NCBI GenBank assembly: GCA_024696325.1 | Contig: JAILGY010000166.1 | Location: 1 to 36,476 of the forward strand | Length of the DNA: 36,476 nt | Reading direction: 5' to 3' | Source of the DNA: a bacterium | GTDB lineage: Bacteria; Desulfobacterota; Desulfuromonadia; Desulfuromonadales; JAAYDE01 | Notes under the pieces: model-generated | The model's input: only the letters and a program-made list of their open reading frames with translations | The model's database searches: none | Told to the model about the DNA's origin: nothing | In this document: in pieces, positions 10,405 to 16,593 of the stretch | Position numbering within the stretch: position 1 is the first letter of the stretch | Layout: the number at the start of each line of letters is the position of its first letter | Position numbers and translations under genes: made by a program

Positions 10405-11538
10405 ATGAACATTTTGAAATGTTTGCAGATTGTGACAGGTGTGGCATTTCTGCTATGGAGTTTTTACGCTTGTGCGGAACCCGTGAAAAAGTGGCGGGTC
10501 ATCTATGTGGAAGGAGGCCCATACTCCGAGTTTCAGCAGACCCTGCGCGCCACCACCCAGAGTCTGGCACAACTGGGCGCAATCCGGAAAGGTGATGTGC
10601 CCATTCCAAAGAAGACACACGATAGCCGTCCCATGTGGGATTGGCTCTGCAAGCATGCCGAAGGCGATCAAATGGAATTTTTGCAGGATGGCTACTATTC
10701 GGCCAACTGGAGCAAGGAACTGCGTGCCCAGAACAAGGCTGCCATTCTCGAGAGGATCCGTACACGCAAGGATGTGGACATGATCCTCGCCTTTGGCACC
10801 TGGGCGGGAATCGACATGGCCACCGACGAGCATCAGGTGCCGGTCATGTCGATTGCGGTAACCGATGCGGTCAAGGCGGACATCGTTAAAAGTATCGAAG
10901 ATTCCGGACGCGATCACGTGCATGCGCTCGTGGATCCGGGACGCTACCAACGCCAGCTCACCATCTTTCATAATGTGTTTCACTTCAAACGTCTGGGCGT
11001 GCCATACGAAGATACACCCGAGGGACGTTCCCATTGTGCCTTCGACGAAATCGAGCAGAGCGCCCGCCAGCTCGGCATAACTGTCGTCCCCTGTGCCACC
11101 CAGCTCAATGTTCCCGACAAGGATACCAGCTTTCGGAATCTGAAAAAATGTCTGGAGACGCTCTCCACCAGTTCAGACGCCATCTATTTGACCATGTCGT
11201 CGGCTATGCAATGGCACCGCATGAAAGAGCTGCTGGAGCCATTGATTGATGCCGGCATCCCCTCCTTTTCCCAGCTCGGTTCTAAGGAAACCCGGCTGGG
11301 CGTATTGATGAGCATCTCCCAGAACGATTTTAAGCACGAAGGCATGGCCGCAGCCAAAGCGATCGTCAAGGTGATAGGCGGCGTCAAACCACGCGACATT
11401 TCTCAAATTTTTACCGGTCCTTTGGGGATGGCCATCAATCTGAAAATGGCGATGCTTATCGGCTGGGATCCGCCGCTGGAGGTGCTGACAGCCGTGGACA
11501 GTATCTATCAGGATCTGGCCAACGCTCAGGAAGAGTAA
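10405..11538 (+). CDS. Periplasmic binding protein (ABC substrate-binding-like, type 1 PBP), copy 1
   Basis: Signal peptide ending ACA-EP; DMILAFGTWAG, VTDAVKADIV, FKRLGVPYEDT, GVKPRDISQIF, AINLKMAMLIG motifs; 377 aa. Confidence 0.85.
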   Translation: MNILKCLQIVTGVAFLLWSFYACAEPVKKWRVIYVEGGPYSEFQQTLRATTQSLAQLGAIRKGDVPIPKKTHDSRPMWDWLCKHAEGDQMEFLQDGYYSANWSKELRAQNKAAILERIRTRKDVDMILAFGTWAGIDMATDEHQVPVMSIAVTDAVKADIVKSIEDSGRDHVHALVDPGRYQRQLTIFHNVFHFKRLGVPYEDTPEGRSHCAFDEIEQSARQLGITVVPCATQLNVPDKDTSFRNLKKCLETLSTSSDAIYLTMSSAMQWHRMKELLEPLIDAGIPSFSQLGSKETRLGVLMSISQNDFKHEGMAAAKAIVKVIGGVKPRDISQIFTGPLGMAINLKMAMLIGWDPPLEVLTAVDSIYQDLANAQEE

Positions 11539-11619
11539 GTGGCGGCGCGCACTGCCAGAGGGATTTACTTTTGCCGTTTTGATGAAAGTTTTTTCGATGG
11601 GAGTTTGCGAGGTTGTGAA

Positions 11620-12753
11620 ATGAACATTTTGAAATGTTTGCAGGTTGTGACAGGCGTGGTGTTTTTGCTGTGGAGCGTTTGCATCTGTGCGGAACCGGCA
11701 AAGAAGTGGCGGGTCATCTATGTGGAAGGCGGTTCCTACACCGATTATCAGCAAATCCTGCGCACTACCGCCCAGGGACTGGCCCAACTGGGCGCAATCC
11801 AGAAGGGCGATGTGCCCATTCCAAAGGAGACGCCTGATACCCGCCCCATGTGGGATTGGCTCTGCGAGCATGCCGGCGGTGACCGGCTGGAATTTTTGAA
11901 GGATGGCTACTATTCGGCCAACTGGAGCGAGGAACGTCGCGCTCAAAACAAGGCCGCCATTCTTGAGAGGATCCGCACACGCAAGGATGTGGACATGATC
12001 CTCGCCTTTGGCACCAGGGCCGGGTTGGATATGGCTACCGACGAGCATCAGGTGCCGGTCATGTCGATTTCGGTGACCGATGCGGTCAAGGCGGGCATCA
12101 TCAAAAGTATCGAAGATTCCGGGCGCGATCACGTGCATGCGCTTGTGGATCCGGGGCGCTACCAACGCCAGATTGTCATTTTTCACAACGTGTTTCACTT
12201 CAAACGTCTGGGCGTGCCCTACGAGGATACGCCAGAAGGACGTTCCGCCTGCGCCTTCGAAGAAATCGAACGCACCGCCCGTCAACTCGGCGTGTCCATC
12301 GTTCCCTGCGTTACTCAACTCCGTATTCCCGACAAAGAGACCAGCTTCAAAAATCTGCAAAAATGTATGGAGAAACTTTCTATCAGTTCGGACGCCATCT
12401 ATATGACCATCTCACCGGCCATACAGGGGAAACGCATGAAAGAACTGCTTGCACCGCTGATCGAGACCGGCACCCCCTCCTTTTCCCAAAGCGGTTCGGA
12501 GGAAACCCGGCTGGGCGTGCTGATGAGCATCGCCCAGAACGATTTCAGCCATGAGGGCATGGCCAGTGCCCAGGCAATTGTCAAGGTGCTGAACGGTACC
12601 AAACCTCGCGACATTTCCCAGATCTTCACCGGTCCTCTGGGAATGGCCATCAACCTGAAAATGGCGATGCTCATCGGCTGGGATCCGCCGCTTGAGGTGC
12701 TGGCGGCTGTGGACCGTATCTATCTGGATCTGTCCAACGCCCAGGAAGAGTGA
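11620..12753 (+). CDS. Periplasmic binding protein, copy 2 (tandem paralog)
   Basis: Colinear with copy 1, same length (1134 bp), offset by 1215 bp; own signal peptide and GAGG SD. Confidence 0.85.
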   Translation: MNILKCLQVVTGVVFLLWSVCICAEPAKKWRVIYVEGGSYTDYQQILRTTAQGLAQLGAIQKGDVPIPKETPDTRPMWDWLCEHAGGDRLEFLKDGYYSANWSEERRAQNKAAILERIRTRKDVDMILAFGTRAGLDMATDEHQVPVMSISVTDAVKAGIIKSIEDSGRDHVHALVDPGRYQRQIVIFHNVFHFKRLGVPYEDTPEGRSACAFEEIERTARQLGVSIVPCVTQLRIPDKETSFKNLQKCMEKLSISSDAIYMTISPAIQGKRMKELLAPLIETGTPSFSQSGSEETRLGVLMSIAQNDFSHEGMASAQAIVKVLNGTKPRDISQIFTGPLGMAINLKMAMLIGWDPPLEVLAAVDRIYLDLSNAQEE

Positions 12754-15156: not shown

Positions 15157-15204
15157 GGCGATGTCTTCCGTTTCTGGGCAAGCAAAGTCTCCGGAGATTT
15201 GAAT

Positions 15205-16593
15205 TTAGCAGGCGTCATCATTTTTCCCCATGCGGAGCAGTTTCTTGCGCAGGCCTTCGCGGGTAATACCCAAAAGCGCCGCCGCCTGACTGCGGTTGCC
15301 AGCGACACGTTGCAGGATATTGAGAACATGGCGCCGTTCCATCTCCTGCAGGGTCAACATTTCATCCTTCTCTTCCGAAGATGTGCAAACATGCTCGGGA
15401 CGTTGCGTCTGAACGGCAGCAGGAGAGAATGTCTCATGCTCCTCCGATTCGGAAGCCGTAGCAAGAATACGCGGCGAAAGATCCGGAACCGTCACCAGTT
15501 CACCCAGTGTCAATGCTGCGGCACGCTCCATTTCATTGTTGAGTTCGCGCACATTTCCCGGCCAGGGATAGTTCAGCAGCAACTGACGCACTTCGGGAGA
15601 AAGCATCAGCCGGCTACGCCCCATCCGGGCGCAGTGCTGTTCCAGAAACATCTGCGCCAAAAGCAGGATGTCGTCGCCGCGCTCCGTCAGCGGTGGCAAA
15701 CGAATCTCCGCCACGTTGATCCGGTAATAGAGATCCTCACGGAATTTGCCAGAATGAGCGCTTTCCAAGAGCTCCACATTGGTTGCGGAAATCAAGTTAA
15801 TATCCAGCGCAATAGTCTTTGAGCCCCCCACCCGCATAATCTCGCGGGATTCCAGCGCTCTGAGCAATTTGGCCTGATTGGCCAATGTCATTTCACCGAT
15901 TTCGTCCAGAAACAGTGTACCACCGTTGGCCTCCTCCATAAGTCCCCTGCGAAAGCCAACGCCGGTTGCCACGCCCTTTTCAATGCCAAAAAGTTCACTT
16001 TCAAACAGCGAATCGGGAATTGCCGTGCAGTTGACAGCAATAAAAGGGCCTTCACGGCGTGGCGAATTGAAGTGAATCAGACGCGCCACTACCTCCTTGC
16101 CAGTACCGGTGGCACCCAGGATCAGGGTGTTGATGGGGCGGTTCGAGATGGAAAGAGCCATTTTTATTACCTTGCGCATAGCCGCGCATTGTCCCAGCAC
16201 TTTGCGAGGCTGCCACGTTTCCTGCACGGCGCGCATGAGGTTGGCGTTGCGTTGCATGAGCTGACGCTTTGCCGCTTCCAGTTCCGCATTGCGCGCCTGA
16301 AGCTCCTGCACCAGATCGGAACTGCGAAGCTCACGCCCTCCCACCTTGACCAGCATCATGCCAAAGGCTTCGGCCAGCCGTACCAGTTCCGGAGGACCCG
16401 CATCCTGGCGCGTGAAGCGAAACAGCTGGTCTTCGTTGGCGGGCCGTCCCCAGGCCAGATCATCGCAGAGGTTAATCAATGTATTGAACAGTTCATTGGA
16501 TTCATCGTTCTTGTTGCAAGCACCTCCAGCGGTTTTTGTTGGACAGGATTTATCCGTTTTACTTCCTTTGTTGCCGCTTTCACTTTCTTTCAT
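15205..16593 (-). CDS. Sigma54-dependent enhancer-binding protein (AAA+, Fis HTH), no receiver domain
   Basis: GATGTGKE Walker [63 protein letters not shown] replaces GAFTGA. Confidence 0.95.

Follow-up and report, generated by a model that had tools for sequence, protein, structure and literature searches.

A type III secretion island of a gut bacterium with a probable built-in signalling chain, which Desulfovibrio-type injectisomes share but for which no description exists

The locus raises the question of why secreted solute-binding proteins, with no transporter genes beside them, should lie between two T3SS (type III secretion system) gene blocks and converge on the gene for a membrane phosphatase. 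The window—the whole stretch of DNA analysed, 36,476 nucleotides—is one entire contig (C126) of a genome that is 86% complete, so that anything to the left of it has to be sought on other contigs. It appears that the island probably carries a signalling chain of its own, the window holding what would be the two ends, input and transcription, of a partner-switching pathway inside a horizontally acquired, Desulfovibrionaceae-type injectisome island. The full explanation, leading from binding protein through phosphatase and partner switch to T3SS output, is given a probability of about 55%.

All the elements listed in a first-pass annotation of this DNA were found at their positions among the open reading frames and Pfam matches. 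The interpretation given there is supported as well, none of the checks made on its refuting conditions having overturned it. The second T3SS block (1..10180, minus strand; Pfam) comprises sctP (start only), sctO, N, L, K and J, a TPR protein, sctF, sctD, sctC and a CesT-like chaperone, includes a 175-aa ORF without Pfam match (4822-5349, minus strand), and runs on into contig C75 with the remaining part of sctP, sctQ and sctR. The operon genes upstream of the activator (16613..24460), likewise on the minus strand and assigned by Pfam and ORFs, are sctU (16613-17653), sctT (17694-18518), sctS (18561-18821), a DUF4268 insert (18881-19801), sctV (19961-22054), a YscY-like gene (22087-22548), YscX (22541-22915), a SycN-like gene (22964-23326) and sctW (23327-24460).

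Between these blocks, on the plus strand, lie PBP1 (10405..11538), a secreted orphan solute-binding protein of 377 aa (PF04392, E 4e-12), its tandem paralogue PBP2 (11620..12753; PF04392, E 1e-13) and PBP3' (12750..13109), the remnant of a third copy, which retains the C-terminal 119 aa without a signal peptide and matches the ends of PBP1 and PBP2 on that side at 76-79% identity. The two intact proteins share 81% amino acid identity and a signal-peptide-like N-terminus (MNILKCLQ...ACA/EP, by eye), hydrophobic and covering about residues 1-24 in PBP1; with a dN/dS of 0.18 at dS 0.57 both are, as judged from their sequences, under purifying selection. PBP3' is matched most closely (81%) by a full-length binding protein encoded next to the phosphatase in L055, a relative at 80% identity. 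The junctions of PBP3' are present in contigs from the independent DNA runs X2 and X4, and its end lies 76 bp from the stop of the phosphatase gene. The truncation of PBP3' is absent from the first-pass annotation.

Among the 40 ORFs scanned with Pfam across the contig there is no ABC permease or ATPase, as had been claimed for these tandem genes; since no matching permease or ATPase is adjacent, the binding proteins should not be filed as ABC components. The possibility that their homologues usually sit with ABC permeases is countered by 13 of the 17 binding-protein loci in the window's taxonomic order, which have no ABC-ATPase-like ORF within 8 kb (motif heuristic); of the four exceptions (L044, L047, L051 and L052) two were looked into, L051 and L052, and at both the ABC genes are those of a FecCD/Peripla_BP_2 system that has a binding protein of its own. 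The binding-protein subfamily, with 562 clusters, is much commoner than the phosphatase, and transport may be its primary role, because no gene stands near it more often than that of a large MFS protein (7/17 loci in the order and 25/58 Desulfovibrionaceae loci), found also on pDV1, in Aureimonas and in Azospirillum. This MFS protein and a BshC-like protein are the usual extra neighbours, which the window's genome seems to lack; tblastn gave neither MFS nor hyp2 there, an absence that counts as "not found" because the genome is 86% complete.

The gene on which the array converges encodes, as previously described, a TM-dCache-TM-HAMP-PP2C protein and stands behind a receiver-less activator and sctS, sctT and sctU (Pfam, TM scan). 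This sensor phosphatase (13186..15156, minus strand, as are all its parts) is an orthologue of DVUA0099 of pDV1, with 41% identity over 98% of the length. It consists of TM1 (residues 9-27; 15076-15132), a periplasmic dCache domain (residues 28-321; 14194-15075; TM scan and fold model), TM2 (residues about 322-343; about 14128-14193), HAMP (residues 340-397; 13966-14139; Pfam) and a PP2C/SpoIIE domain (residues 461-655; 13192-13776; Pfam, E 1e-50), the PF07228 match covering profile positions 1-191 of 192. The translation contains the stretches GGDLYD, GDVSDKG, TDGVSEA and SDDIT, which we take to be the catalytic metal-binding aspartate motifs of PPM/SpoIIE phosphatases. The AlphaFold model (pLDDT 83.8) has dCache topology, and Foldseek ranks dCache ligand-binding domains at the top (E 4e-8). 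Among solved chains, those most similar to the PP2C part are 3es2/3eq2, Rv1364c and SpoIIE, 3es2/3eq2 being labelled in their deposition as probable two-component response regulators.

The activator, a sigma-54 enhancer-binding protein (EBP; 15205..16593, minus strand; Pfam), directly follows sctU in the operon and carries Sigma54_activat, AAA lid and HTH_8 domains, with no receiver domain in Pfam. It is an orthologue of DVUA0100 (67% identity over the AAA+ part), with which it shares the motif GVATGV (15958-15975, minus strand; alignments A3, A4 and A5) in place of GAFTGA. Its N-terminus (residues 28-126), common to 133 protein clusters, is modelled as helices 28-48, 54-61 and 68-126 ahead of the AAA+ domain, in a predicted helical hairpin and coiled coil, and no other input domain is visible in the structure model. 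A motif scan requiring GG and GC at consensus spacing, and scored out of 11, gave a candidate sigma-54 promoter TGGCAT-N5-TCGCA (24508..24523, minus strand; 9/11) 48 nt upstream of the sctW start, the only such site in the scanned T3SS intergenic regions, and a weak candidate CGGCAT-N5-TGGCA (10289..10304, minus strand; 8/11) upstream of CesT-sctC-sctD, in the intergenic stretch between this operon and the divergent PBP1 gene; for the binding-protein genes no sigma-54 or sigma-70 promoter-like site was found. On pDV1, TGGCCC-N5-TCGCA lies 255 nt upstream of sctW, and rpoN is present on contig C84.

The earlier statement that the D. vulgaris plasmid T3SS also has a phosphatase and a sigma-54 activator proved correct, the pDV1 T3SS operon carrying both DVUA0100 and DVUA0099. 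Window and plasmid share the order sctW-sycN-yscX-yscY-sctV-sctS-sctT-sctU-EBP-PP2C, apart from the DUF4268 insert of the window, the pDV1 operon ending in EBP-hyp-SpoIIE. The pDV1 binding protein, 58% identical to PBP1, is located 57 kb from the phosphatase gene, beside MFS and hyp2, and the two T3SS operons of the plasmid are divergent, whereas those of the window point the same way and enclose a duplicated array of binding-protein genes. In Kazakov 2015 (PMC4641369) the predicted DVUA0100 regulon is the T3SS operons and DVUA0106-DVUA0099 is given as one sigma-54 operon; in the available text of that article DVUA0099 is named once, as the operon end, and the word "phosphatase" is absent.

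Concerning linkage across genomes, 60 of 401 sampled Desulfovibrionaceae genomes hold the sensor, and the 58 sensor loci examined include sctU in 42, colinear sctU-EBP-PP2C with short or no gaps in 37 and a binding protein in 30, such co-occurrence counts overstating the support because kin are not independent. Where the downstream flank is 6.5 kb or longer, which is so in 33 loci, the binding protein is present in 25 (missing from the other 8); 23 of these 33 are T3SS-linked, and 18 of those 23 have it. In six loci of the family it lies within 500 bp of the PP2C gene. The relative L055 has the window's convergent arrangement, and on an Aureimonas plasmid, beside a T6SS, the PP2C and binding-protein genes overlap by 4 bp. 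Among the 17 binding-protein loci of the window's order, five directly adjoin this dCache sensor, borne by three hybrid kinases, one PP2C and one PP2C remnant, another hybrid kinase abutting the binding protein in three more of the 17; in the metagenome loci L058, L062, L063 and L065 a dCache kinase is followed by MFS, hyp2 and binding protein. What is new here is that the genes of this binding-protein subfamily are linked to the phosphatase family, and that kinases sharing its dCache domain are neighbours as well. The binding-protein layer is not peculiar to the window, being the rule in Desulfovibrionaceae T3SS loci.

The STAS protein and RsbW-like kinase proposed to lie outside the window were found on contig C220, the STAS protein with the serine motif YISSAGLR, together with an SLT transglycosylase. 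This trio is orthologous to the STAS, ATP-binding protein and SLT genes of pDV1 (55/56/60% identity), which are placed directly after sctR and before a T3SS chaperone. Across the 401 genomes, 50 contain both the C220-type kinase and the sensor, 10 the sensor only, 20 the kinase only and 321 neither, the kinase thus accompanying the phosphatase in 50 of 60 sensor-bearing genomes; in the window's order a close kinase copy occurs in 2 of 41 genomes searched, only the two T3SS-bearing ones. At L048 a one-strand run reads STAS-RsbW-PP2C-aminotransferase-binding protein, and at L114 binding protein and AstA are followed by a convergent PP2C and then by a divergent, uninterrupted same-strand run STAS-RsbW-EBP, around which no T3SS gene lies closer than 8 kb. 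RsbW adjoins the EBP at L130, and STAS lies beside PP2C and EBP at L113 and L132, the EBPs of L130, L113 and L132 carrying the N-terminal motifs and GVA[ST]GV. It should be noted that STAS or RsbW adjoins the activator or PP2C in only about 4 of 58 loci, and that no sigma factor gene was seen beside the STAS/kinase pair. By gene order, the L114 run and the L130 adjacency point to the activator as a candidate kinase target; no paper on a T3SS-embedded partner switch acting on a sigma-54 activator was found in the literature searched.

Modelling the binding protein with the periplasmic domain of the phosphatase, as had been suggested, supports docking: PBP1 with the dCache gave an ipSAE of 0.63 (runs 0.57, 0.63 and 0.72), compared with 0.00 for the best of three controls. 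Of 80 solved complexes 58 attain the mark applied, against 2 of 110 mismatched pairs, counts that hold only roughly because our own alignments were used. The runs share at least 52% of contacts, with a partner pLDDT of at least 89, and the predicted interface is more conserved than the remainder both on the binding protein (0.727 vs 0.66, p about 0.04) and on the dCache (0.678 vs 0.596, p about 0.002). The pass may lean on likeness to known structures, because there are solved structures in which a type-I binding protein is complexed with a dCache-like sensor (LuxP-LuxQ). Genes for an orphan periplasmic binding protein and a dCache-like membrane receptor lie side by side in LuxP-LuxQ, TorT-TorS, ChvE-VirA, HptA-HptS and NspS-MbaA, the solved docking mode of LuxP-LuxQ being sideways (PMC8050422, in part). 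Here too the binding protein lies without a cognate transporter beside the sensor, whose ligand-binding-type periplasmic domain is held between two TM helices. Table entries of that review name, as outputs stimulated by binding proteins, chemoreceptors, kinases, GGDEF/EAL proteins and one Ser/Thr kinase, and PP2C, SpoIIE and ABC_sub_bind are absent from its available text; the window differs from such systems in its PP2C output and in its binding-protein family, PF04392.

In the chain proposed, PBP1 and PBP2, once exported, would bind a small ligand, in all likelihood an amino acid or a compound derived from one, and the loaded proteins would dock sideways on the periplasmic dCache of the phosphatase. 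TM2 and HAMP would relay the signal and alter PP2C activity, the presumed substrate being the phosphorylated STAS protein encoded with the RsbW-like serine kinase and the transglycosylase on C220. The STAS/kinase switch would then control T3SS output, most likely through release of the GVATGV activator, and the freed activator would fire the sigma-54 promoters before sctW and CesT-sctC, and so would also drive expression of its own gene and of the phosphatase gene. The analysis shows the gene content, the domain architecture, the orthology to pDV1 and the linkage in neighbourhood and phyletic pattern, and from these the docking, ligand, phosphatase substrate, passage from kinase to activator and sign of regulation are inferences. 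Only tentatively do we go so far as to propose the RsbW-like kinase as an anti-activator of the sigma-54 EBP, not an anti-sigma factor, in which case a path from ligand-loaded binding protein over dCache-PP2C, STAS, kinase and GVATGV activator would turn the injectisome genes on—the sign of regulation that we infer—in gut Desulfovibrionaceae and in the recipient lineage. The neighbouring epimerase/racemase, BshC-like ligase and MFS genes may make and export an amino-acid-derived ligand and so form an autoinducer loop; if so, the window's organism, having apparently lost those genes, would only listen to the signal.

The master regulator of the Bordetella bsc T3SS is an ECF sigma factor, not a sigma-54 activator, and we know of no transmembrane sensor or binding-protein input for BtrU. 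Chlamydial RsbU binds ligands directly, its system having, to our knowledge, neither a binding protein nor a place in T3SS operons. HrpR and HrpS of Pseudomonas syringae are not known to carry a receiver domain, and HrpG relieves HrpV. Shared with the present system is, in Bordetella BtrU/BtrW/BtrV, a set of PP2C, STAS and RsbW-like kinase tied to the T3SS and needed for its output and, in Chlamydia trachomatis RsbU-RsbV1/V2-RsbW, a partner switch that takes its input from a membrane PP2C whose sensor domain is periplasmic, although the target of the chlamydial pathway is the housekeeping sigma factor (PMC8256260, in part; Soules 2020, by its title). HrpR/HrpS are likewise sigma-54 activators of T3SS genes, with HrpV as negative regulator (PMC4145663, in part); HrpV/HrpG have no sequence relation to the candidate anti-activator here, a serine kinase of the GHKL kind that has STAS as antagonist and a phosphatase as input.

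The binding proteins could instead be what is left of a module for transport or metabolism (large MFS, BshC-like and binding protein) carried along with the island, the phosphatase sensing its ligand directly in the dCache pocket and the adjacency being inherited synteny. Most studied dCache domains do bind ligands directly (PMC8050422, in part), the series MFS-hyp2-binding protein is met repeatedly downstream of the sensor (PP2C-MFS-hyp2-binding protein at L023 and L075), and in the window's genome, where MFS and hyp2 are missing by tblastn, one binding-protein copy is already truncated. We nevertheless regard this as unlikely: both intact copies appear to be under purifying selection though a search for an MFS partner gave none, sensors stand next to the binding protein with no MFS between them at L043, L046, L049, L127, L128, L131, L132, L133 and in Aureimonas, the same dCache domain retains the association across PP2C and kinase outputs, and the complex model passed its controls.

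The pathway may also be real as far as the STAS/kinase pair and yet act on secretion by the assembled machine or on substrate translation, not on the activator. That is the case in Bordetella, where the output of the analogous switch is post-transcriptional or on secretion (PMC8256260, in part), and the pDV1 trio ends the apparatus operon after sctR, away from the activator, beside which STAS or RsbW stands in only about 4 of 58 loci. At L114, however, no nearby secretion machine offers a target for the STAS-RsbW-EBP run, RsbW and EBP are adjacent at L130, and the activator shows no other input domain, so that we hold this outcome, too, to be rather improbable. Far more improbable still is that phosphatase and binding proteins regulate just the neighbouring MFS/hyp2 module or general physiology, the T3SS location being incidental: sensor, binding protein and MFS do occur without T3SS genes in Aureimonas, at L048 in the window's order, where SctW is absent, and in those 9 of 58 loci that have no sctU within an upstream flank of 3.5 kb or more, but against these stand the 37 colinear loci, the single sigma-54 operon DVUA0106-DVUA0099 (PMC4641369, in part) and the STAS/kinase pair within the pDV1 T3SS operon.

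Should the chain from binding protein to T3SS output be true, PP2C phosphatases would be added to the receptor outputs driven by periplasmic binding proteins, and PF04392 to the signalling families of such proteins; a sigma-54 activator may then be a new target for a partner switch, in this case a T3SS-embedded one, and little-studied injectisomes would gain a candidate input. All the parts are present on pDV1 of the tractable, non-pathogenic model Nitratidesulfovibrio vulgaris (N. vulgaris) Hildenborough, which makes the chain directly testable. As for the hosts, the source names of homologues (Bilophila, uncultured Desulfovibrio and Mailhella) place the system in gut Desulfovibrionaceae.

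The genome containing the window is metagenome-assembled (1.95 Mb, 246 contigs, 86% complete), the window being its contig C126, and the gene arrangement described in the first-pass annotation was confirmed in full by the ORF listing and Pfam scans. PBP1 (10405-11538) and PBP2 (11620-12753), both on the forward strand, are PF04392 proteins with a hydrophobic N-terminus ending ACA/EP, followed by PBP3' (12750-13109, forward), which holds only the last 119 residues of a third binding-protein copy. Convergent with them is the phosphatase gene (13186-15156, reverse), whose 656-aa product consists of a transmembrane segment at residues 9-27, a 294-residue periplasmic stretch, a second transmembrane segment, a HAMP domain and a full SpoIIE/PP2C domain; upstream of it lies the gene of a receiver-less sigma-54 activator of 462 aa (15205-16593, reverse). 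Further upstream are sctU, sctT and sctS, a low-GC DUF4268 gene, sctV, the YscY-, YscX- and SycN-like genes, and sctW. The DUF4268 gene (18881-19801, reverse; 306 aa; GC 0.44 vs ~0.53), between sctV and sctS, seems to have been inserted into the T3SS operon, since both plasmid pDV1 of Nitratidesulfovibrio vulgaris Hildenborough and the Desulfovibrionaceae locus L023 lack a gene there. The left block comprises a CesT-like gene, sctC, D, F, J, K, L, N, O and the start of sctP (1-843, reverse), a gene split between the window and contig C75. The T3SS resumes on the latter, where the Q/S/P-rich remainder of sctP is followed by sctQ and sctR and by a 1989-aa ORF that is cut off by the contig end, at the place where pDV1 carries STAS-kinase-SLT genes. 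Of the 40 ORFs put through Pfam across the window, none matched an ABC permease or ATPase.

As the first-pass annotation stated, the Desulfovibrio vulgaris plasmid T3SS also has a phosphatase and a sigma-54 activator, the annotated order in pDV1 being sctW-sycN-yscX-TPR-sctV-sctS-sctT-sctU-sigma-54 regulator-hypothetical-SpoIIE phosphatase. A tblastn search against plasmids located the phosphatase homologue of pDV1, present in four records, which is 41% identical over 98% of the length. Concerning the pDV1 translocon and chaperone region, only the CesT-like gene was matched in the window's genome, tblastn with these queries giving no homologues of SctB, the SycD-like chaperone or the neighbouring hypothetical proteins. 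The position of the translocon genes in pDV1 is occupied in the window by the binding-protein array.

The periplasmic part of the phosphatase (residues 28-321) was modelled by AlphaFold with a mean pLDDT of 83.8 from an alignment of 11 rows; in the model, two alpha/beta modules lie between a long N-terminal helix and a C-terminal one. Its best Foldseek matches are dCache ligand-binding domains—Mlp24, PctD, TlpQ, Tlp3 and DctB—with a best E of 4e-8, probability 1.00 and TM of about 0.3, and for homologues whose output is a kinase the match to Pfam dCache_2 is direct (E down to 5e-38). Among solved structures, the catalytic part comes closest in sequence to the partner-switching phosphatases 3es2/3eq2 (deposited as probable two-component response regulators), Rv1364c and SpoIIE. 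A word-based protein search with the periplasmic part returned six clusters and was discarded as a measure of rarity, tblastn and genome searches having found many more.

The neighbourhoods of the binding protein were surveyed with ORFs called by a simple greedy script and tallies made at tblastn thresholds chosen by the analyst. In the plasmid collection, 13 records carry a full-length homologue. That of pDV1 (58% identity) overlaps a 1012-aa 'MFS transporter', followed by a 594-aa hypothetical protein (hyp2), and adjoins a CesT chaperone and a DUF3626 protein, 57 kb from the phosphatase; an Azospirillum plasmid has the order alr-binding protein-MFS-GNAT. On the Aureimonas sp. AU20 plasmid pAU20a (L034), the genes of a phosphatase (29% identity, full length) and of a binding protein (41-44%) have a 4-bp overlap, and a large MFS protein is encoded close by. 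Beside this operon are several response-regulator genes, a protein kinase gene and a T6SS cluster (tssC, E, F, G), and the adjoining cluster suggests that the sensor pair may there serve another secretion system. Within the order Desulfuromonadales the subfamily occurs in 15 of 233 genomes, the window's included, and 17 places, all outside the window's genome, were fetched. Five abut a sensor with the same dCache domain—hybrid kinases in L043, L046 and L049, a full PP2C in L048 and a PP2C remnant in L053—and three another hybrid kinase (L041, L051, L052); a large MFS protein is present at seven, two of which overlap the PP2C group, and four have none of these. The first-pass annotation had held that linkage to ABC permeases would tell against its reading; no cognate ABC system appeared at the order's loci examined. 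Frequent neighbours are amino-acid enzymes (alanine/aspartate dehydrogenases, class-III aminotransferase, AstA-like and DAP-epimerase-like proteins), and solved PF04392 proteins, according to the accessible text of PMC10443332, bind L-Trp, L-Tyr and L-Phe. In L043 (9052-11304), L046 (1170-3398) and L049 (9376-11628), two binding-protein copies share one open frame of 742-750 aa, adjoining the dCache hybrid histidine kinases.

Metagenome contigs with the dCache domain gave 16 loci, of which L056 is the sequence of the window. In L055, a relative at 80% identity, the activator-phosphatase pair and a convergent binding protein are arranged as in the window, and in L058, L062, L063 and L065 the genes of MFS, hyp2 and one or two binding proteins come after a dCache kinase. 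Concerning the Desulfovibrionaceae, the family of the L023 genome, the N-terminal 340 residues of the sensor found counterparts in 60 of the 401 genomes sampled, and 58 loci were fetched, the genome of L023 and another that held only fragments being set aside. The gene sctU is present in 42 of the 58, a colinear sctU-activator-phosphatase order in 37 and a binding protein in 30, six times within 500 bp of the phosphatase; L133 reads CesT-PP2C-binding protein with a 3-bp gap. Where the sequence beyond the phosphatase extended downstream for 6.5 kb or more, the binding protein was found in 25 of 33 loci, including 18 of the 23 T3SS-linked ones, in line with the co-occurrence anticipated from the window. 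L023 breaks off within hyp2; in its genome, contig C119 opens in hyp2 and then carries the binding protein. These tallies give T3SS...sctU-activator-PP2C-MFS-hyp2-binding protein as the usual layout, relative to which the binding protein in the window's genome is inverted and multiplied. It should be noted that a module in which the large MFS protein and hyp2 are joined by one or two PF04392 proteins is conserved across phyla (L036, L058, L062, L063, L065, L117-L125), often with a racemase, epimerase or other amino-acid enzyme; the MFS protein has a 3-TM N-terminal extension, while hyp2, for which Pfam gives no match, has an Atlas model similar to BshC-like Rossmann proteins (TM 0.60-0.64).

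The dCache domain (alignment A1) was co-folded with mature PBP1 (alignment A2), and a complex was predicted, as the docking idea of the first-pass annotation supposed: ipSAE values were 0.57, 0.63 and 0.72 (median 0.63), the best of three controls giving 0.00. In calibration, 58 of 80 solved complexes attained the ipSAE mark, as did 2 of 110 mismatched pairs, figures that apply only roughly here since the analyst's own alignments were used; likeness to the solved binding-protein/dCache-like complexes may account for some of the pass. The runs agreed in at least 52% of contacts, with partner pLDDT of at least 89. The predicted interface is formed by the binding protein's conserved C-terminal segment (mature residues 313-343) and by the long helix and both modules of dCache, the residues in contact being somewhat more conserved than the remainder.

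As to PBP3', its closest match (81%) is the full-length, phosphatase-proximal binding protein of L055, which identifies it as a truncated third gene, and its junctions are bridged at about 99% identity by contigs of independent animal-gut DNA runs. It starts with a GTG overlapping the PBP2 stop, has a dN/dS of 0.16-0.17 against the full copies and retains exactly the segment modelled to touch the dCache domain.

STAS and RsbW-like genes, expected outside the window, were found there as two pairs, on contigs C220 and C244. An SLT transglycosylase gene comes after the C220 pair, and the trio so formed matches (55, 56 and 60% identity) its counterpart in the pDV1 order sctQ-sctR-STAS-'ATP-binding protein'-SLT-T3SS chaperone; in the window's genome it lies on C220, away from sctP-sctQ-sctR on C75. 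The YISSAGLR serine motif is common to the C220 STAS protein and those beside dCache-PP2Cs in L048 and L114, and is lacking in the C244 protein. A close copy of the C220 kinase within the order is confined to the window's genus (2 of 41 genomes searched), weaker matches being fused or adjacent to HAMP-PP2C genes. Single frames of 825 and 791 aa in two genomes (G004:C17 and G006:C21; L012 and L013) match both the HAMP-PP2C part and the C220-type kinase, and may be phosphatase-kinase fusions. Among the 401 Desulfovibrionaceae genomes, strong kinase matches and the sensor occur together in 50, the sensor only in 10, the kinase only in 20 and neither in 321, counts that are no statistical test as the genomes are kin. 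By Pfam, L114 combines binding protein-AstA-like, a convergent dCache-HAMP-PP2C and a divergent STAS-RsbW-activator; L130 reads MFS-hyp2-binding protein-PP2C...RsbW-activator, L113 and L132 have STAS beside the activator, and L048 reads STAS-RsbW-PP2C-aminotransferase-binding protein. The activators of L114, L130, L113 and L132 have their N-terminal motifs and GVA[ST]GV in common.

The window's activator carries GVATGV in place of the usual GAFTGA and, in alignments, two conserved N-terminal motifs followed by a long helix. The N-terminal model (36 aligned sequences, pLDDT 83.1) contains helices 28-48, 54-61 and 68-126, the last running into the AAA+ domain, and no globular sensor domain. The accessible text of Kazakov et al. 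2015 (PMC4641369) describes its orthologue DVUA0100 with GVATGV and a 'long conserved N-terminal region', and predicts as its regulon the T3SS operons DVUA0106-DVUA0099 and the divergent operon; the T3SS regulon is thus already in print as a prediction. A sigma-54 promoter-like site, TGGCATTAATTTCGCA, a good match, was located at 24523-24508, 48 nt before sctW; the window has a weaker one before its CesT-sctC operon, and pDV1 a similar one before sctW. The gene rpoN is present on contig C84. A candidate site before PBP1 (10219-10234) was rejected, its spacing being off by one base, and sigma-70 promoter and terminator matches in 9600-16700 are no more frequent than in shuffled sequence. The sctW upstream, CesT/PBP1 intergenic and pDV1 divergent regions yielded no convincing common activator-binding motif, sharing only the short words ATATGCCGC and TGCCGCAGG. 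Directly upstream of the sctW site is a 467-aa histidine kinase gene (24528-25931, reverse; HAMP, HisKA, HATPase_c), which pDV1 lacks at that place; the ORF scans of the contig turned up no response regulator.

The gene architecture, the orthology, and the neighbourhood and phyletic linkage are established. A mechanism can be proposed in which the loaded binding protein would dock on dCache, HAMP would relay the signal to PP2C, and PP2C would dephosphorylate the C220 STAS protein; the latter would capture the kinase, freeing the activator, and sigma-54 transcription of both T3SS operons could follow with positive feedback. It is the STAS/RsbW-activator adjacency, in about 4 of 58 loci, that leads us to propose that the kinase holds the activator. 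Alternatively, PBP1 and PBP2 may be remnants of the MFS/hyp2 module, in which case dCache would sense its ligand directly. In line with this reading, neither MFS nor hyp2 was revealed by tblastn in the window's genome (86% complete); against it, PBP1 and PBP2 have diverged to a dS of 0.57 with a dN/dS of 0.18, so that both have been kept under purifying selection. It may also be that the target of the switch is secretion, which is the case in Bordetella, and not the activator; T3SS partner switching in Bordetella and a membrane RsbU in Chlamydia are known from the accessible text of PMC8256260. Adjacency to the T3SS may even be incidental.

Regarding precedents, the outputs of binding-protein-stimulated receptors given in the accessible text of PMC8050422 are chemoreceptors, kinases, GGDEF/EAL proteins and a Ser/Thr kinase, and the terms PP2C, SpoIIE and ABC_sub_bind do not occur in that text. 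Searches of the freely readable literature (main texts) yielded no description of the phosphatase, its binding protein or a partner switch on a sigma-54 activator.

The sister species (G001) has sctW (93%) on an 8.9-kb contig, the absence of the PBP-phosphatase-activator stretch from its assembled contigs being uninformative at 83% completeness. Near-identical copies of the window stretch occur in gut metagenome runs from animals (largely bovine); at least half of the sampled words are present in seven runs, drawn from four studies, and contigs of three of these runs, each of a different study, were compared with the stretch. RNA run X20 gave short contigs of 90-99% likeness on CesT, PBP2 and the activator; such contigs are not evidence of transcription, and some may be other organisms'. 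To the right of the histidine kinase gene the island abuts the housekeeping genes accBC, aroQ, aroK and aroC. This flank, the 52-77% identity of the island proteins to Desulfovibrionaceae ones and the rarity of SctW within the order (2 of 233 genomes, in the same genus as the close C220-kinase copies) fit acquisition of the island from Desulfovibrionaceae.
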